From positions 1 through 64,000 of IMG/VR virus record IMGVR_UViG_3300028182_000001: DNA of 64,000 nt; one strand, written 5' to 3'. The notes beneath the pieces were generated by a model, which saw only the letters and a list, made by a program, of their open reading frames with translations, was not told where the DNA came from and did not search any database. Shown here piece after piece: positions 3,640 to 34,046 of the stretch. The DNA is from a virus. The translations under genes were made by a program, and so were the position numbers. How positions within the stretch are numbered: the stretch's first letter is position 1; every line of letters begins with the position of its first letter.

Positions 3640-3661
3640 TGTCAAGTAAATTTACTTGACA
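3640..3661. repeat. palindromic element copy 2
   Basis: Perfect 22-bp TGTCAAGTAAATTTACTTGACA, preceded by ATTTTAGGATC. Confidence 0.95.
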
Positions 3662-3692
3662 GTACATAGCAAAAATTCTTTTTAAAATGTTG

Positions 3693-3721
3693 TTGACTTT
3701 AAAGCAACAAGATGAGATAAT
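3693..3721 (+). promoter_or_regulatory. sigma-A early promoter with dyad
   Basis: TTGACT-17-GATAAT, TG extension; dyad 3690-3710. Confidence 0.8.
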
Positions 3722-3759
3722 GATTACAGAAACAAATAACTTATAAGGACGTGTGATAT

Positions 3760-4491
3760 ATGGAAACAGTTGAACAGATTAATAAATATGCTTTTCTTAT
3801 CGTTGAAAGTGCAGGAGATGACTTTCACATGGTAGCGCAATTAGGGGAAAATTGTGAAGAGGTTAAACATTATGTAAAACGTTCTTTAGCACCTAATTGG
3901 TCTATCGTGGAAGATGTTGAAGTAATTAAAGCGTTCATTGAAAAGGAAAATAAAGAACGTTATGAAATTCCACAAACTGCATGGTTTTATGAATTATTGG
4001 ATTTATTAGAAAAACAACTAAATGAAAAGGACGTGTCAATTATGACAAACGCAATGATGAACGTACAATTAACAGTAGCTTTAGGAGAAGAACAAGAAGA
4101 ACGCTTATATACTTTCTTACAAGAAGAATTATCTCATGAGGAGTTCGTTGTACTTGATGAAATTACAGTGGACACATATTTACTTGAAACACAAAAGGAA
4201 AACTTATTTGCTTACAATGTTAGTCATGTTATGAATCACTTAAAGTGGGAAGTTGCAAAAGATTTAATTAATGATAACACGGGGTGGGAAGAGTTGAGAA
4301 AGTCTATCCTACATGCACAAGAAAACTTATGTGAGTCTGCAAATGGATTGATTCAAGCACTTACAGACTGGAAAGCACTTATTTTAAGAGGTGCAGAGAT
4401 TGACGGAAACGGGCATTTTATTTCTCCTTATGACGGAGAAGAACACGAAATAAAGTTCGAAGGTTTAGACTTGTTAGTCTATAAGGCATAG
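3760..4491 (+). CDS. acidic early protein with in-frame internal start at 4042
   Basis: 243 aa; a second complete RBS cassette AAAAGGACGTGTCAATTATG lies at 4025-4044. Confidence 0.8.
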   Translation: METVEQINKYAFLIVESAGDDFHMVAQLGENCEEVKHYVKRSLAPNWSIVEDVEVIKAFIEKENKERYEIPQTAWFYELLDLLEKQLNEKDVSIMTNAMMNVQLTVALGEEQEERLYTFLQEELSHEEFVVLDEITVDTYLLETQKENLFAYNVSHVMNHLKWEVAKDLINDNTGWEELRKSILHAQENLCESANGLIQALTDWKALILRGAEIDGNGHFISPYDGEEHEIKFEGLDLLVYKA

Positions 4492-28329: not shown

Positions 28330-28860
28330 CCTTGCCTATTTTTATTCTTACCTACTTGATGAAAGTTATTCTGTCCTATTTATAATTTATGTCATATTTT
28401 AAACCCTTGCTATGACTGACTTTATAGACTACTTGAGTATATTTCTGTCCTATTTAAATTATAACTGGTCTGTATATATACTATTATATTTATTATTAAG
28501 TACTATTATTACTATTAAATATTATATAAAATTAAATAGGACATACGTTAAAATTTAAATAGGACATTTTTTCTCTATTTCTGACACATTTAAATAGTAC
28601 TAATTTGACTCTATCATCAAGTACATTTCTATTTGATGTTACTGTTAACCCTTGATACATATATACTTGAAGTATATTCAAGTTAGAACTACTTTATACT
28701 TGAACTGTTCAAAAAGTTATAATTTAAATAGGACATAAAATAGAGAGAACATGTACCATTATATTTATAAGTACACTGTATATATAATTATATTATTTAT
28801 ATTAAAATTTATATTAAAATTAATATTAAAGTATTTATAATAAAATTAATATTAAGATAG
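28330..28860. other. putative replication origin (iteron-like AAATAGGACA repeats plus AT-rich tract)
   Basis: Five 10-mers in both orientations, a 21-bp perfect inverted repeat, near-pure AT tract 28779-28855, no ORF, at the strand switch. Confidence 0.55.
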
Positions 28861-28934
28861 ACGATCCGAACGGAAAATCCATCTTCAAATAAAAAAGTTT
28901 AAAAAAAAAAGTTGAAAAAAGATGGTCTCTAGGG

Positions 28935-28963
28935 TTGTACTAGGTTATAGTCTGTGTTATACT
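28935..28963 (+). promoter_or_regulatory. sigma-A promoter of tRNA operon
   Basis: TTGTAC-17-TATACT with TG extension and upstream A-tracts. Confidence 0.7.
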
Positions 28964-29076
28964 GAGTACAGGCTTAGATATTTAGTAAGTAAACAACCAC
29001 TCCTTATTGGTTAGAGGGGCACATAACGATCCCGTGGAAAGGTGACTTATAATCCTGCTCCTTAAATTTTCTGTCT

Positions 29077-29124
29077 ACATAACCTATAGATGTTTCTCCT
29101 CCGATTTTCATTTATAGGTTATGT
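29077..29124 (+). ncRNA. leader hairpin with CUCCUCC loop
   Basis: 16-bp stem ACATAACCTATAGATG/CATTTATAGGTTATGT. Confidence 0.45.
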
Positions 29125-29137
29125 TACTTTTTAATAT

Positions 29138-29226
29138 GGAAGGGTACTCAAGTTGGTGAAGAGGTCAACCTGCTAAGTTGATAGTACCTATTGTAGGTAG
29201 CGAGGGTTCGAATCCCTTTCCTTCCT
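29138..29226 (+). tRNA. tRNA-Ser(GCT)
   Basis: Cloverleaf, long variable arm, TCAAC-CTGCTAA-GTTGA, TTCGAAT. Confidence 0.9.
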
Positions 29227-29235
29227 TACTCTTAT

Positions 29236-29308
29236 GAGGACGTACCGAAATGGTTAACGGGCTAGGTTGCAACCCTAGTATTCGCTGGTTCGAATCCAGT
29301 CGTTCTCT
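29236..29308 (+). tRNA. tRNA-Cys(GCA)
   Basis: CTAGG-TTGCAAC-CCTAG; U73. Confidence 0.9.
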
Positions 29309-29353
29309 TACGTATATGTTATGATGAATTTATGTTATAATATATTATATAAC

Positions 29354-29428
29354 GTGCCTGTAGCGTAGTGGTAGCGCAGTAGCCTGTTAAGCTATTGGTC
29401 GGTGGTTCGAATCCACCCAGGTACGCCA
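29354..29428 (+). tRNA. tRNA-Asn(GTT)
   Basis: GTAGC-CTGTTAA-GCTAT; encoded CCA. Confidence 0.92.
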
Positions 29429-29431
29429 TAA

Positions 29432-29614
29432 TGTGCAGCTTAGTAAAACTGGTTTATACGTTGCAACTTAGTATACTTATGTATCTGAAGGCATAAGTGA
29501 AGAGTAAAGATGTACGGTAAAACTGGTGATGCTCTCCTATAGTAAAGAAACACCTAAGTCAGATTAGGTTTGTATAGGAAGAAGGATTGGGTGCAACTCC
29601 CACCGTGTACACTA
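29432..29614 (+). ncRNA. tRNA-like RNA with long internal domain
   Basis: Paired ends TGTGCA/TGTACA, T-arm-like TGGG-TGCAACT-CCCA, internal hairpins, fills a tRNA slot exactly. Confidence 0.55.
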
Positions 29615-29617
29615 TAC

Positions 29618-29693
29618 GGGGCATTAGTATATCGGTTAATTATTCCTGGCTTCCAACCAGGGGAGGTCGGTTCGATTCCGACATGTCCCTCCA
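29618..29693 (+). tRNA. tRNA-Gly(TCC)
   Basis: CCTGG-CTTCCAA-CCAGG; TCCA end. Confidence 0.92.
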
Positions 29694-29697
29694 ATTT

Positions 29698-29774
29698 GCC
29701 TTCTTAGCTCAGTTGGTTAGAGCGACTGCCTTGTAAGCAGTAGGTCAGGGGTTCGAGTCCTCTAGTCGGCACCA
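29698..29774 (+). tRNA. tRNA-Thr(TGT)
   Basis: ACTGC-CTTGTAA-GCAGT; ACCA; two acceptor mismatches. Confidence 0.85.
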
Positions 29775-29779
29775 TTTAT

Positions 29780-29852
29780 GCTTGGATAGTTCAGTGGCAG
29801 AACACTTACCGTAGGTAAAGTAGCATGGGTTCGATTCCCATTCCTCGCTCCT
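29780..29852 (+). pseudogene. pseudo-tRNA (collapsed anticodon loop)
   Basis: Normal D and T arms, but TTACC-GTA-GGTAA 3-nt loop, two acceptor mismatches, CCT end. Confidence 0.7.
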
Positions 29853-29857
29853 ATTAT

Positions 29858-29934
29858 GTCGCATTGGTGAAATTGGCTAACACACTCGGCTTTCTACCGA
29901 GCATTCAGGGGTTCGAATCCCCTATGCGATACCA
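29858..29934 (+). tRNA. tRNA-Glu(TTC)
   Basis: CTCGG-CTTTCTA-CCGAG; ACCA. Confidence 0.92.
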
Positions 29935-29938
29935 ACTT

Positions 29939-30010
29939 GGGGATATAGTGTAGTGGTTAACACGCACGGCTGTCTACCGTGAAGCACGGGTTCGAATCCC
30001 GTTATCCTCG
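29939..30010 (+). tRNA. tRNA-Asp(GTC)
   Basis: CACGG-CTGTCTA-CCGTG; G73. Confidence 0.92.
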
Positions 30011-30012
30011 TA

Positions 30013-30085
30013 ATCCCTTTAGCCAAGCGGTTAAGGCAGTAGGATTATGTCCTACGTATCGGGAGTTCGAACCTCCCAAGGGGCG
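30013..30085 (+). tRNA. tRNA with anticodon TAT (nominally Ile, atypical)
   Basis: GTAGG-ATTATGT-CCTAC; A1-C72 mismatch. Confidence 0.65.
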
Positions 30086-30096
30086 CACAATGGTTG

Positions 30097-30202
30097 CCTG
30101 TGTATCCGTGCCCAAAACAGGAATTTTCACCTAGCTATTCGAGTTAGGTTATGGACGTATGAGCCATGCGTTGTGACGGGGCAACGATAAAACCCGTCTT
30201 TT
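30097..30202 (+). ncRNA. structured spacer RNA ending in an H-type pseudoknot
   Basis: Three hairpins, then CGTTG/CAACG crossed by GACGGG/CCCGTC. Confidence 0.45.
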
Positions 30203-30206
30203 CTTT

Positions 30207-30280
30207 ACCCCTTTAGCCAAGTGGACTAAGGCAACGGGCTTCTATCCCGTGGATCGTGGGTTCGATTCCTACAGGGGGTG
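30207..30280 (+). tRNA. tRNA-Arg(TCT)
   Basis: ACGGG-CTTCTAT-CCCGT. Confidence 0.9.
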
Positions 30281-30338
30281 TTACAGGAACTTACCACGCT
30301 TCCTCATTTAATGATAGCGGACCAGGTAAGTCTTTTTT

Positions 30339-30427
30339 CGGGGAATACTCAAGTGGATAAAAGAGGTTAGTCTTGAAAACTAATAGGCGTGTGAAAGCGT
30401 GCGGGGGTTCGAATCCCTCTTCCTCGG
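30339..30427 (+). tRNA. tRNA-Ser(TGA)
   Basis: TTAGT-CTTGAAA-ACTAA, long variable arm, G73. Confidence 0.9.
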
Positions 30428-30461
30428 CTTAAAAAAAAATTAAAAAACTTTAATTATATGC

Positions 30462-30490
30462 TTGCATCAAGTTACAGACTATGATACAAT
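30462..30490 (+). promoter_or_regulatory. second sigma-A promoter in tRNA cluster
   Basis: TTGCAT-17-TACAAT with TG; upstream A-tracts. Confidence 0.75.
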
Positions 30491-30506
30491 GTGTATAAGT
30501 TATTAT

Positions 30507-30580
30507 TTCGGAGTGGACAAACTGGTAAAGTCGCTTGGCTTTGACCCAAGAGCGTGAAGGTTCGACCCCTTCCTCCGAAG
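30507..30580 (+). tRNA. tRNA-Gln(TTG)
   Basis: CTTGG-CTTTGAC-CCAAG; U1-A72. Confidence 0.9.
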
Positions 30581-30658
30581 TCTACCCAAGGTCACACCTT
30601 GGAAACTAAGCCTAATAGCCTACAATGGTTAACGTGACCACTTATTAGACTTAGTTTC

Positions 30659-30732
30659 CAGTGTGTGGTGAAGTGGCTTAACACGGACGACTGTGGATCG
30701 TCTATTCGCTGGTTCGAATCCAGTCATGCTGA
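30659..30732 (+). tRNA. tRNA-His(GTG), lacking G-1:C73
   Basis: GACGA-CTGTGGA-TCGTC; acceptor CAGTGTG/CATGCTG; A73. Confidence 0.8.
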
Positions 30733-30740
30733 TATATCAT

Positions 30741-30812
30741 ACGGGTGTAGGCTAGAGGTCAGTCACTGCGTTTGGGGCGCAGATCACGTTGGTTCGATCC
30801 CAACCACTCGTA
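30741..30812 (+). tRNA. tRNA-Pro(TGG)
   Basis: CTGCG-TTTGGGG-CGCAG. Confidence 0.88.
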
Positions 30813-30928
30813 CTTTGTTTATGTTTAGGTTTTTCACACACCTCCTACAGGGTTACGACCCGTGTCAATCGAAGTAGGTTAAAACTTTGGATATCCGAGT
30901 AAACAGGTTCAAGATATCCCTCTATTAT

Positions 30929-31001
30929 GGACAGGTAGCTCAGTTGGTAGAGCATACGGTTGAAACCCGTAGTGTCGTTGGTTCGACCCCAACCTTGTCC
31001 A
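30929..31001 (+). tRNA. tRNA-Phe(GAA)
   Basis: TACGG-TTGAAAC-CCGTA. Confidence 0.92.
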
Positions 31002-31010
31002 CTTTAATAT

Positions 31011-31093
31011 GTGTCAGTCGCATAGTGGCAATTGCAGGAGACTGTAAATCTCCCCCGAAAGGTACGTTGGTTCGAGTCCAACCTGGCACACCA
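31011..31093 (+). tRNA. tRNA-Tyr(GTA)
   Basis: GGAGA-CTGTAAA-TCTCC, variable arm, ACCA. Confidence 0.92.
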
Positions 31094-31164
31094 AAAAATT
31101 TATAATATGTTGTTGTCTTTTTATTTACTTACCTTCTTTGCGGAAACAGAGAAGGTACAACTAT

Positions 31165-31252
31165 ATCGGAATGTTGGAATTGGTAGACATAACGCACTTA
31201 AAATGCGTTGCTCCTTGGGGCGTGGTGGGTTCGAGTCCCCCTTCCGATACCA
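31165..31252 (+). tRNA. tRNA-Leu(TAA)
   Basis: ACGCA-CTTAAAA-TGCGT, long variable arm, ACCA. Confidence 0.9.
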
Positions 31253-31253
31253 T

Positions 31254-31330
31254 ACTAGTGTAGCGCAGTCAGGTAGCGCAGTGTCTTGATAAGGCATTGG
31301 TCACAGGTTCGAATCCTGTCACTAGTACCA
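31254..31330 (+). tRNA. tRNA-Ile(GAT)
   Basis: GTGTC-TTGATAA-GGCAT; ACCA. Confidence 0.92.
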
Positions 31331-31335
31331 TTTAT

Positions 31336-31413
31336 GCCGAGGTAATCCAATCAGGTAGAGATCGTGGTCTTAGAAGCCATCCAGTGAGGGTTCGAATCCC
31401 TCTCTCGGTACCA
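31336..31413 (+). tRNA. tRNA-Leu(TAG) with short variable loop
   Basis: GTGGT-CTTAGAA-GCCAT; 5-nt variable loop; ACCA. Confidence 0.85.
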
Positions 31414-31419
31414 TATTAT

Positions 31420-31503
31420 GGGGGAGAGAAACTTAAAGGCAAGAGGTAAGCCAGTGGTCTCCAAAACCACCGTTAAGAGGTTCGATTCCTCCCTCCCCTG
31501 CCA
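31420..31503 (+). tRNA. tRNA-Trp(CCA) with enlarged D region
   Basis: GTGGT-CTCCAAA-ACCAC; GCCA end. Confidence 0.8.
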
Positions 31504-31507
31504 ACGT

Positions 31508-31579
31508 AGGAGTATAGCTCAGTGGTAGAGCGTGGGTCTCATACGCCCGAAGTCGATGGTTCGATCCCATCTATTCCTA
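31508..31579 (+). tRNA. tRNA-CAT (Met or lysidine-Ile2)
   Basis: TGGGT-CTCATAC-GCCCG. Confidence 0.88.
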
Positions 31580-31625
31580 TCGCTTTAGTATGTTCAAAAT
31601 TGATAATTTAATAGGGGGAATTGAA

Positions 31626-32255
31626 ATGGAACAAATGTCAGTTCAACGTGGTTTAATGGAGTTAAAGACTTTAGGTAATCGTATCACTCGTGCCACTCAA
31701 CAATCTTTCGTGAATTTCTACGTAGGTGACAAGGGTGCTCCACAAGGATTCAAAACACCTGATGAGTTTGCTTCATATGCTCAAGGTCGTTACGACTCTG
31801 CTACGGACTTGATTAAACGCAGAAACGCAATTAAAGCTGCTATTATCCAGTCTAACGCAGTAACTACGGTTACTGTAGCAGGTAAGCAGATGACAGTTGC
31901 AGAAGCAATTGACCGTAAGGATTCAATTGTACACGAGAAAGTTCTTTTACAACAACTGCAATCGCAGTTTAGTGAGATTACTAGACGTGTAGCCGCTCAA
32001 CAACAAGTGTTAGACGCTCGAATTGATAAGGTTTTAGAAGAGGAAGGTGGCAAAGACCGTAAGGTTGATGACGCTGACCACGCTCGCATCGTAAAAAATG
32101 CAGAGTCTCGCTACAAACCAAATCTTGTCGATCCTATTGGTATCCGTAAGGTTATCAATCAGATGGAAGAAGATATCAATTCGTTCGAGTTAGATGTGGA
32201 TGCTTCATTATCCGAAATCAACGCTCGTACGGATATCGAGTTCGAAGTCAAATAG
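31626..32255 (+). CDS. helical coiled-coil protein (DIP1984/DUF6847-like, from memory)
   Basis: AGGGGG RBS; MSV.RGL.ELK.L..RI, IK.AI..SNA.T.V.V.G..MTVAEAI.RK, LVDP, .D..LSE.NA.T. Confidence 0.75.
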   Translation: MEQMSVQRGLMELKTLGNRITRATQQSFVNFYVGDKGAPQGFKTPDEFASYAQGRYDSATDLIKRRNAIKAAIIQSNAVTTVTVAGKQMTVAEAIDRKDSIVHEKVLLQQLQSQFSEITRRVAAQQQVLDARIDKVLEEEGGKDRKVDDADHARIVKNAESRYKPNLVDPIGIRKVINQMEEDINSFELDVDASLSEINARTDIEFEVK

Positions 32256-32289
32256 TAGGTTGACTCCCTCTCTCTGAGAGGGACAAGCC

Positions 32290-32652
32290 TTTGCTAACAC
32301 ACCGACACTTACCAACCAAATGCGTCCCTTACTAACGATATAGTGAGAACAAGATACTTTTGACAGATTAGTCAAAACTAAGCGGTAGCCAAATTGGGCT
32401 AATACATATATGATAGTACCCCCGAGGAAGCGGGGTACAAACAGGTGTAAGAAGCTCAAAGCTAAGTGTTCAAAGGTTGACAAGTTAAAAGTTCTTATGC
32501 GTTCAAAGGTAATAGTTGTACAGGTCAAAGAGGGCAAGATGAGTCTCCAAAAGAGAGACTAGCCCGTAAAGGTCGATAAAATCCACTGTAAAAGGTTTGC
32601 GAGAGTTCATTTGTGGTCTCCGTAGGTGCCTAGTGGCTGGTGTGGTGGCAAA
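32290..32652 (+). ncRNA. large structured ncRNA downstream of the coiled-coil gene
   Basis: ~18-bp long-range closing stem 32290-32309/32632-32652, at least five internal hairpins, repeated GNTCAAAG motifs, followed by a terminator. Confidence 0.7.
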
Positions 32653-32662
32653 TAATAGATGT

Positions 32663-32698
32663 AAAAGACTCCTCGTCTCCTTTCGAGGGGTCTTTTTT
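32663..32698 (+). terminator. intrinsic terminator
   Basis: AAGACTCCTCG/CGAGGGGTCTT plus T-tract. Confidence 0.85.
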
Positions 32699-32754
32699 CG
32701 TATGTAGAAGTCCTATATTACACTGGTAAGACCAAATGTGAAAGGTGGGACTCT

Positions 32755-33594
32755 ATGCTACAAGTTAAATCATTTAGTGGAGCAACACATGCAGAACAGA
32801 TTCAAAACGCAATCAATGCTGCAAGTGTAAGCACAACAGACAAGACTGTACAACTAGAAGAGTTTAAAGACTACTACATCACTGCACCTATCATCATTAA
32901 GAAGAACGTGGAACTACTATTTGGCTATGGTACAAAACTAGTTATTGGTAGTAACGTACGTGTACTAGAATTAGAGACGAACGCATCCGTGACAAATCCG
33001 TACATCGCTATTGACGATCCGTCATTTGATTCTGCGGTCTTCTACTTGGATGGTAAGAATAAGTTTTATAACACATGGAACAGAACATCTATTAAGAACG
33101 GTGTCATCGTTAACTGGGCAGGTTCTTACAAAGGCGTAGGTATCTCATGCTTTGCAGGTGGAACTGGTCACGAAGTATCATTCGTAAACTTCTTCGACAT
33201 CAAGATTAGTGGTCTACGAAGAGGGTTAGAGCTACGAGCAGCTAAACCATATACAGGTATGGCTTGGGTGAATGCGAATAGATTTAAAGACATCTCATTA
33301 GATGATTGTATTGAAATGATTGTAATTGAATCTTCTGAAACGATCCCGAACGAATGTAGTGGAAATATGTTCACTGGACTTCAAATACAACCTTCTGCTA
33401 TGACAACAACAGTACTACGTGTGAACGGGCAACAGAACCGATTCGAGGGTATGCTTTGGGATACTCACTTGATTTCAACTCCTAGTGCATTCGTTCACTT
33501 TACGAATACAAGCTCGTACAACAAGATAGATTTTAACGGATCGGTGCCGACTGCAAAAGTATCCGATGCAGGTGCATTCAATAAAGTACTTTAA
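32755..33594 (+). CDS. pectin-lyase-like beta-helix protein
   Basis: IQNAINAA...TV.L....YYI..PIIIK.NV.L start and repeated N-rich beta turns. Confidence 0.65.
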   Translation: MLQVKSFSGATHAEQIQNAINAASVSTTDKTVQLEEFKDYYITAPIIIKKNVELLFGYGTKLVIGSNVRVLELETNASVTNPYIAIDDPSFDSAVFYLDGKNKFYNTWNRTSIKNGVIVNWAGSYKGVGISCFAGGTGHEVSFVNFFDIKISGLRRGLELRAAKPYTGMAWVNANRFKDISLDDCIEMIVIESSETIPNECSGNMFTGLQIQPSAMTTTVLRVNGQQNRFEGMLWDTHLISTPSAFVHFTNTSSYNKIDFNGSVPTAKVSDAGAFNKVL

Positions 33595-33737: not shown

Positions 33738-34046
33738 GTGAGCTATGTGAGTTTATTCAGCAAAGATACGAAATGGAAGAAAGCTAAACAACTTCTGAAC
33801 CACAACTACACATGGTTGGAAGTCATTAGCTACTATAAGTCACTAGGTGGTACCAATGTGTCCGTTTACTCTGTTATCGAAGGTGATAAACGGTTGATTG
33901 TAGATTTAACCGATGATGACCAAGTGCTTCTAGTAAACAAGCATAACGAGTTAGTCAAAGATACTTATGATAACGTATTGAACAGTCGTAAAGTATTTGA
34001 GTACCACGAAGACAACTCACGAAACCCCGTTGAATACAAAACATAA
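33738..34046 (+). CDS. conserved hypothetical protein upstream of portal
   Basis: 102 aa after TATATTA late-type motif. Confidence 0.7.
   Translation: MSYVSLFSKDTKWKKAKQLLNHNYTWLEVISYYKSLGGTNVSVYSVIEGDKRLIVDLTDDDQVLLVNKHNELVKDTYDNVLNSRKVFEYHEDNSRNPVEYKT

Follow-up and report, generated by a model that had tools for sequence, protein, structure and literature searches.

Here, a 64,000-nucleotide (nt) stretch of viral DNA (IMG/VR record IMGVR_UViG_3300028182_000001, positions 1 to 64,000; "the window") was analyzed at a gene for a protein of 209 amino acids (aa) and at the approximately 440 nt without a conserved open reading frame (ORF) that lie downstream of it. Positions 32290 to 32652 on the plus strand are a conserved structured noncoding RNA of 363 nt, and the RNA gene forms a two-part module with the upstream helical protein gene, to which it is genetically locked. 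All coordinates are window positions, and the RNA of the window is numbered on the plus strand. The phage record comprises 158,403 bp with direct terminal repeats. Its closest relatives are Bacillus cereus-group phages (Herelleviridae, Bastillevirinae, genus Caeruleovirus), and Hobo, BM15, and Bcp1 are 91 to 93% identical across the region. The module is made up of the following parts.

31626-32255, plus strand: 209-aa ORF of the partner protein (phrog_1491), all-helical, acidic, predicted symmetric homodimer
32257-32289, plus strand: spacer hairpin that separates the stop codon from the RNA, with no U-tract
32290-32304, plus strand: 5' arm of P1, the closing helix, pairing with 32638-32652
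32306-32312, plus strand: 5' arm of P2 (CACUUAC), pairing with 32622-32628 across H1
32317-32322, plus strand: 5' strand of PK (CAAAUG), pairing with 32608-32613 in the loop of H2
32328-32438, plus strand: variable 5' region with four hairpins (32328-32347, 32358-32377, 32387-32400, and 32416-32438)
32447-32579, plus strand: A-rich track with a 7-nt period (units such as UCAAAGN or AAAGUUC), interrupted by a hairpin at 32532-32565
32566-32639, plus strand: conserved 3' domain (UAAAGGUCGAUAAAAUCC ... GGCUG), holding H1, H2, the partner of PK, and the 3' arm of P2
32583-32587 with 32632-32636, plus strand: H1
32601-32604 with 32617-32620, plus strand: H2
32638-32652, plus strand: 3' arm of P1 and probable 3' end of the RNA proper

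The region 32256-32700 had a predicted folding energy of -140.3 kcal/mol, corresponding to z = -5.2 on the plus strand against dinucleotide shuffles and z = -2.6 on the minus strand. No conserved ORF was found in it. Its sole plus-strand ORF, a 50-aa frame at 32410-32562, was rejected as a gene, as stops or frameshifts interrupt the frame in phages that are 90 to 93% identical. The original prediction, made from the letters of the window alone, had described the stretch as free of plus-strand ORFs, and this broken frame is the only qualification. It had also held that the RNA was neither a tRNA, a tmRNA, a CRISPR array, nor a named RNA class, which agrees with the scan of the window (28500-33500) with the Rfam 15 covariance models at E ≤ 1. 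In 32256-32660, no match exceeded its gathering score (RNase P, tmRNA, 6S, signal recognition particle RNA, group I and II introns, ROOL, GOLLD, Y RNA, and others). The sole Rfam entry in that range was the SpF11 small RNA (sRNA) over the terminator, with 27.4 bits and an E value of 0.41 (gathering score, 54). An Rfam scan of the homologous gaps L024 to L030 gave no RNA-family match either. No published account of the RNA or the protein was found in a literature search, and the RNA family is almost uncatalogued, its sole catalog entry being an 86-nt fragment.

The first 35 nt and the last 75 nt of the RNA together form a double-pseudoknotted core consisting of P1, P2, PK, H1, and H2. P1 spans 15 positions with 14 pairs. 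The strand that follows it pairs twice with the 3' domain, once as P2 and once as PK, which reaches the loop of H2; P2 crosses H1, and the fold is therefore a pseudoknot. The core closes a loop that holds the variable hairpins and the single-stranded track with its 7-nt period. The variable 5' hairpins differ in sequence and length among phages while retaining their pairing. Likewise, different sequences keep the spacer hairpin paired in Tsarbombavirus relatives; it is absent from most other families. The five enclosed hairpins and the separate hairpin at 32257-32289 that had been predicted thus exist, with their pairing kept in relatives. The view that the stretch folds as one unit was right about strong folding of the plus strand, but the fold is pseudoknotted and not a single nested unit. 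Similarly, the predicted closing stem stands for 32290-32304 with 32638-32652. Its inner part, 32306-32309 with 32632-32635, is contradicted by covariation and was rejected: 32632-32636 pairs with 32583-32587 in H1, and 32306-32312 pairs with 32622-32628 in P2. A local GCC/GGC hairpin at 32628-32637, proposed by RNAalifold from 15 close phages, was also rejected, as it is displaced by H1, which covaries family-wide. The AAAUC/GGUUU helix from the same 15 phages is invariant on both sides and so is uninformative on covariation.

Compensatory changes were observed in every core helix (58 to 63 distinct sequences). Across 15 full-length RNAs, the full model of 72 pairs in 11 helices was 91.5% paired, compared with 37 to 45% when the partners were slid by 1 to 3 columns, and 13 of the 72 pairs changed on both sides. 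In these 15 RNAs, all from Bastillevirinae, P2 and PK were 100% paired and showed compensatory changes. Family-wide, P2 was 80.8% paired and both sides changed in all 5 pairs. PK was more stable with its own partner (-6.95 kcal/mol) than with those of other sequences (-3.51 kcal/mol), with pairs as unlike as UAGCUUAG/CUAAGCUA and UUACAC/GUGUAA. P1 was present in all 62 distinct members tested; it was 85.5% paired, against 56.2 ± 1.6% when the 3' arms were dealt to other sequences, and its energy was -18.8 kcal/mol with its own arms and -10.5 kcal/mol with others' arms. Positions 3 to 6 of P1 were 95 to 100% paired with 4 to 5 pair types.

The helices within the 3' domain gave a similar result. 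In an alignment of 59 3' domains made with MAFFT only, H1 was 96.6% paired, and AU, UA, CG, and GC replaced one another at four of its five pairs; one position carried AU 20, UA 20, CG 8, and GC 4 times, and another carried GC 16, CG 14, AU 13, and UA 10 times. The covariation score of the H1/H2 alignment was 0.617, compared with 0.203 in shuffles (0 of 500 as high), and slid controls were only 35 to 46% paired. H2 also covaries, with 68.5% and 78.9% pairing in domain alignments; in the full-length MAFFT alignment it was misaligned (42% paired). G-U pairs are tolerated on the plus strand only, and the first pair of P1 is G-U in 59 of 63 sequences. These frequent plus-strand G-U pairs therefore fix the strand and rule out a DNA-level element. 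The original prediction had looked to the DNA downstream of homologous genes for a conserved, covarying RNA, and there the RNA is indeed conserved and all core helices covary.

The gene and the RNA occur together well beyond the window. In 13 annotated Caeruleovirus and Tsarbombavirus phages, the same gene is followed by a gap of 445 to 558 nt; these gaps align, with a near-invariant 3' part and hairpins that still pair in spite of unlike sequences. The pair was found in 15 Bastillevirinae phages, in T5-like, Pseudomonas, and Vibrio phages, and in phage G. With tblastn, the protein was detected in 742 phage records, including those of T5-like Demerecviridae, Pseudomonas Otagovirus, Vibrio, Klebsiella, and Erwinia jumbo phages, phage G, Lactococcus phage 949, and the C. 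difficile phage phiCD211. Six more distant annotated phages were examined, and in all of them the gene is followed by an unusually long gap of at least approximately 260 nt. Across 440 T5-like records, identity over the homologous region is 80% or higher (90% or higher in 432), and none of the 60 such records listed annotates an RNA there. In two Salmonella phages, bobsandoy (NC_092683, 77152-78132) and 1586 (PP438655, 63252-64232), an HNH/homing endonuclease gene splits the T5-type RNA region in two. The region 91308-92483 of MN364664.1, "Xanthomonas phage Xoo-sp15," shares 92% DNA identity and 98% protein identity with the Bacillus phages described here, and its host label looks doubtful.

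Iterative nhmmer searches starting from the Bastillevirinae RNAs linked 73 of 77 distinct downstream regions. The final profile gave 73 matches, all downstream on the plus strand; other parts of the loci and 385 shuffles gave none. The length of the RNA ranges from 275 to 405 nt across the family. A covariance model of the 3' domain (R1; 73 positions) was built from phage sequences only. In the 158-kb genome of the window, R1 found a single match, at 32567-32639 (72.6 bits; E = 1.4e-12), and one match each was found in the whole genomes of Deep Blue, phage G, DT571/2, and pSal-SNUABM-01. Among 72 sources searched, 70 matches were obtained, one per locus, all downstream and on the same strand, including three loci outside the seed (L106, L109, and L030). 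R1 found no match in L024, whose protein is 35% identical, or in Brevibacillus fortis. The gap of L024 still folds with a long closing stem, so its RNA may be a divergent form.

In the phage TsarBomba, the gene and the gap are both missing: the tail-spike-like gene comes 83 nt after its tRNA-Met, and R1 found no match in its whole genome. The terminator at 32663-32698 and the 22 nt ahead of it are retained, with the junction located exactly at the 3' end of P1. The insertion or deletion therefore comprises exactly the gene and the RNA up to the 3' arm of P1. The gene and the RNA are an obligate pair and were lost together. The strong terminator that had been predicted after the RNA is present; since TsarBomba keeps it without the gene-RNA module, it belongs to the tRNA operon and not to the RNA.

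The pair is also found in cellular genomes, with 181 loci in bacterial and archaeal assemblies encoding a relative of the protein. Of 71 bacterial loci, none of which had contributed to the model, 69 had an R1 match downstream of the gene. Searches of four whole genomes (3.1 to 4.8 Mb), with the best 150 first-look candidates scored per genome, each gave a single R1 match, at the protein locus. The neighbors of the pair in Bacillus altitudinis and Lysinibacillus fusiformis are a permease or MFS transporter gene on one side and genes for immunoglobulin (Ig)-domain or AhpC-family proteins on the other, which makes the pair a stand-alone chromosomal unit and not a prophage gene.

The repeat tract noted in the original prediction is real and has a period of 7. 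Family-wide, the self-identity of the track was 0.427 at lag 7 and 0.382 at lag 14, compared with approximately 0.24 at the remaining lags, and only codon periodicity was seen at the end of the protein gene. The family consensus consists of tandem AAAGnUn units. The window has seven CAAAG/AAAAG-type units, at approximately 32455, 32470, 32488, 32504, 32526, 32566, and 32590, with degenerate units between the clear ones and some irregular spacing. In some subfamilies only, tandem 7-nt units run into the Shine-Dalgarno sequence of the gene itself.

The partner protein has more than 1,000 relatives, which with one exception are 200 to 226 aa long; its close viral matches are all uncharacterized. 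It matches the profile phrog_1491, named "tail fiber protein," over residues 1 to 207 of 209 (E = 3.9e-80). The genomic context offers no support for this name: the genes sit among tRNAs, in early regions, or on bacterial chromosomes. The AlphaFold2 model is all-helical, with a mean predicted local distance difference test (pLDDT) score of 92 and long helices at residues 45 to 79, 91 to 141, and 173 to 201. Modeling supports a symmetric homodimer: the score was 0.70 (best control, 0.00). Of the solved homodimers, 20 of 30 attained this score, as did 1 of 23 monomers. Agreement among the runs was at least 98% of contacts, the pLDDT of the partner chain was 91, and these values express the confidence of the model. 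In BCP12 (L006, 1618-2240), the annotation divides the protein gene into 1618-2004 and 2091-2240, while the downstream RNA is intact; the cause is a sequencing error, or else this phage naturally carries the RNA with a broken protein gene.

A resemblance to the DIP1984/DUF6847 coiled-coil family had been suggested for the protein, and it may hold at the level of a remote fold likeness. The best match among solved structures is DIP1984 of C. diphtheriae (3KDQ; septicolysin-like, DUF6847 type), with a Foldseek E value of 2.6e-3, a probability of 1.00, template modeling (TM) scores of 0.47/0.61, and a root mean square deviation of approximately 10 to 11 Å. The nearest Pfam-bearing Atlas cluster has DUF6847 in 16% of its members (score, 0.88), and one phage homologue is annotated "septicolysin like." However, no DIP1984, DUF6847, or septicolysin-like sequence profile in Pfam or NCBIfam matched at E ≤ 0.1; the only Pfam hit was DUF7867 (E = 0.039), under its cutoff. 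The identity to 3KDQ is only 15%, with a weak phmmer match (E = 0.43), and DIP1984 is shorter, at 153 aa.

The surroundings of the module in the window are as follows.

29138-31581, plus strand: array of 20 tRNA genes (ARAGORN)
31507-31581, plus strand: last tRNA of the array (Met, CAT)
32663-32698, plus strand: intrinsic terminator
32755-33594: tail-spike-like gene (phrog_3783), after the terminator
33738-34046: small gene
34073: start of the portal gene

The 209-aa ORF begins 44 nt past the end of tRNA-Met and is preceded by the ribosome-binding site AGGGGGA. No promoter-like site was found between the two, in line with the earlier suggestion that the gene is probably cotranscribed with the tRNAs. 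Cotranscription of the RNA with the protein gene is likewise probable, and in most relatives the 5' arm of P1, the first helix of the RNA, begins only 5 to 40 nt past the stop codon. Within the array, ARAGORN called a tRNA at 29780-29851 whose anticodon has four bases (gtag) and to which no amino acid was assigned (Rfam tRNA score, 43.3 bits); this may represent an unusual or frameshift-suppressor-like tRNA or a misfolded call. The 93 nt that separate tRNA-Leu from tRNA-Met contain a partial tRNA match (31437-31492; 29.5 bits; model positions 9 to 63), which looks like a decayed tRNA because Deep Blue and QCM8 carry tRNA-Trp there. The tail-spike-like gene is missing from Deep Blue, Thurquoise, and BCP12, which continue straight to the small gene ahead of the portal gene.

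The neighborhood of tRNAs is common in phages. On viral contigs, tRNAs lie within 1.2 kb at 37 of 70 loci, all 95 of them on the same strand, and many begin approximately 5 to 16 nt from the 3' end of the RNA. This arrangement would fit cotranscription and release by tRNA-processing enzymes. Only 7 of 80 bacterial loci have a tRNA nearby, and the link to tRNAs is thus a habit of phages and not a defining trait. Accordingly, the predicted expression with phage tRNAs applies to the pairs beside tRNA arrays in phages but not to the bacterial pair, which stands alone between housekeeping genes. In L060 (1904-1976) and L096 (1913-1986), a full tRNA gene lies inside the variable region of the RNA, between the arms of P1, and in the alignment L065, L088, and L089 have T-arm-like GGTTCGAATCC hairpins in that region.

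Other RNA motifs were observed close to the module at some loci. The orphan skipping-rope RNA (RF02924) lies between the stop codon and the RNA in the Brevibacillus phage SecTim467 (L028, 3125-3202) and just after the RNA in Paenibacillus xylaniclasticus (L118, 2519-2647); SecTim467 also has a BsrG match at 3660-3934. FuFi-1 on the minus strand upstream of the module (L074, 854-1026; L087, 855-1027) and drum downstream of it (L083, 2607-2714), both within 1 kb, are further orphan motifs from the same 2017 survey. A group I intron match upstream of the module in L068 (127-354) was below threshold (36.2 bits; gathering score, 50).

We propose that the gene and the RNA would be transcribed jointly from the tRNA operon, ending at the operon terminator, and that the RNA would then be freed by processing as a stable species. 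Copies of the homodimeric protein would load onto the heptad track and form a defined protein-RNA particle. For this course of cotranscription, processing, and dimer loading, we estimate a probability of about 0.55. The knotted core would serve as a scaffold that protects the ends and clamps the excursion of variable hairpins and A-rich heptads. Since the pair stands alone in bacterial chromosomes, a general activity on cellular RNA or translation, co-opted by phages together with tRNAs, suggests itself, and the activity of the particle is probably of this kind rather than purely antidefense. The most extended form of the proposal is tentative, and we place it slightly short of even odds: a widespread ribonucleoprotein of bacteria and large phages, in which dimers polymerize on a track in 7-nt register held by a double-pseudoknot clamp, and which phages from Bastillevirinae to coliphage T5 express with tRNAs to act on host RNA or translation.

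Several observations weigh against particle formation by the protein and the RNA. The protein family is acidic, with a median isoelectric point of 5.6 and a net charge of -3, and such mild acidity would not be usual in a protein that binds RNA. R66 and K70, the invariant basic residues, fall in the predicted dimer interface. The heptads of the window are less regular than the family consensus. Autoregulation by heptads in the leader of the gene was rejected, as the family-wide lag-7 value there was 0.328, compared with 0.318 ± 0.009, which is not significant. The binding of the RNA by the protein, which the original prediction had also put forward, is a hypothesis, as are the roles that it had named (translation control, an antidefense decoy, or an RNA antitoxin-like partner), and a discrete, stable RNA species is inferred.

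The RNA might instead work alone, as ROOL, GOLLD, and raiA may, with the protein only functionally linked as a chaperone, processing factor, or regulatory factor, or the element might be a cis-acting 3' untranslated region that governs the stability or translation of the protein mRNA. In its intricate pseudoknotted core, with nucleotides that are nearly invariant, the RNA is similar to structured RNAs that act by themselves, and the acidity of the protein points the same way. So do the location of the RNA in phage tRNA arrays, as for ROOL and GOLLD (PMC5737381), and the split gene with an intact RNA in BCP12. However, adjacency is strictly 1:1, with a fixed order and strand, in phages of Gram-positive and Gram-negative hosts and in bacterial chromosomes, a tighter association than is usually expected from a loose functional link, and the two parts were lost jointly in TsarBomba. 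In addition, a stability element in a 3' untranslated region has no need for approximately 130 nt of periodic single strand and a double pseudoknot. We therefore regard this explanation as possible but unlikely.

A sponge is a further explanation, and a rather improbable one. The heptad track would be a decoy for a host factor that reads single-stranded A-rich sites, with the partner protein helping or protecting the RNA, and phages would thereby shield their transcripts or tRNAs. Candidate targets are an endoribonuclease of the RNase Y or RNase E type, an enzyme that recognizes tRNA loops, and a defense nuclease. CsrB and RsmZ are sponges built of multiple, evenly spaced single-stranded units, and by analogy the track could follow this design. 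The same-strand tRNAs within 1.2 kb at 37 of 70 phage loci, often only approximately 5 to 16 nt from the 3' end of the RNA, and the tRNA inside the variable region of L060 and L096 are consistent with such a role, and UUCAAAG can be read as having the 7-nt form of a tRNA loop. However, the bacterial pair stands among housekeeping genes with no tRNA nearby in 73 of 80 loci, which does not suit a purely antihost device. The sponge also leaves the obligate partner protein unexplained, and a host factor of such specificity is only hypothetical.

Neutralization of a toxic protein by the repeat RNA, in the manner of a type III toxin-antitoxin system, would account for a repeat RNA beside a small protein gene in one transcription unit, but it is very improbable: the gene order is reversed relative to ToxIN-type systems, the units are 7 nt within a knotted RNA of 280 to 400 nt and not processed repeats of 34 to 36 nt, and the helical bundle has no nuclease-like match in Pfam, NCBIfam, or the Foldseek PDB search (the PADLOC library was not searched). 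A DNA-level element with no RNA, such as iterons or a packaging or replication site near the portal region, is scarcely credible despite the repeated short motifs and the portal gene a few kilobases downstream, as compensatory changes keep Watson-Crick and G-U pairs on the plus strand only and unrelated phages whose genome layouts differ, like bacteria, have the element at the same position and on the same strand relative to the protein gene.

An elaborate RNA with an obligate partner gene is thus present in hundreds of sequenced phages and in many Bacillota chromosomes. Pseudoknotted cores with near-invariant nucleotides are a hallmark of RNAs with sophisticated jobs, and units set in a 7-nt register would point to a novel way for protein and RNA to assemble. 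The results also correct the widespread misannotation as a tail fiber protein and explain the recurrent "empty" gap in the tRNA regions of phages. Homologues are available in T5, where a putative RNA of approximately 350 nt lies behind T5.085, and in Bacillus and Lysinibacillus species that are easy to handle.

Among cataloged RNAs, the closest to the RNA described here is RAGATH-27 (RF03100), an orphan candidate sRNA of 86 positions. Its matches fall in one gut subfamily, at the first 86 nt of the RNA that directly follows this protein gene, with scores of 88 bits in L094, 85 bits in L074, 75.7 bits in L087, and 92.9 bits in Ruminococcus L191 (gathering score, 76.1 bits). It had no match in 28500-33500 of the window at E ≤ 1 and none in the other subfamilies scanned. 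The RAGATH-27 model covers only the 5' quarter, without the heptad track, the 3' domain, or the long-range helices, and RAGATH-27 is therefore a fragment of a larger RNA. The RNA of the window is thus a relative of the RNAs that contain RAGATH-27 and not a member of the motif as modeled. RAGATH-27 itself is a catalog entry without a recorded function or protein partner.

ROOL and GOLLD are large, ornate orphan RNAs of bacteria or phages that often lie beside tRNAs and in prophages and are probably cotranscribed with them (PMC5737381). They are reported as RNA-only assemblies (10.1101/2024.12.08.627333). The family described here is likewise a large orphan RNA of phages and bacteria, located beside tRNAs in phages. 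However, the Rfam scans gave no sequence or structure match between either of them and the RNA of the window, and the heptad RNA is smaller (275 to 405 nt), with a heptad track and an obligate adjacent protein gene.

In contrast to the type III systems of the ToxIN kind, in which tandem RNA repeats of 34 to 36 nt precede the gene of an endoribonuclease toxin, the heptad RNA has a period of 7, lies downstream, and is paired with a helical-bundle protein. A different parallel is offered by TRAP with the trp leader and HutP with the hut RNA in Bacillus, in which oligomeric proteins read evenly spaced short RNA repeats; HutP sites recur with a period of 7. By analogy, the heptad track presents short single-stranded units at a fixed spacing that a protein oligomer could read. 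However, TRAP and HutP are beta-rich rings that act on mRNA leaders to control termination, whereas the partner protein is predicted to be an alpha-helical dimer, and the heptad RNA would be a separate knotted molecule encoded downstream of the protein gene.

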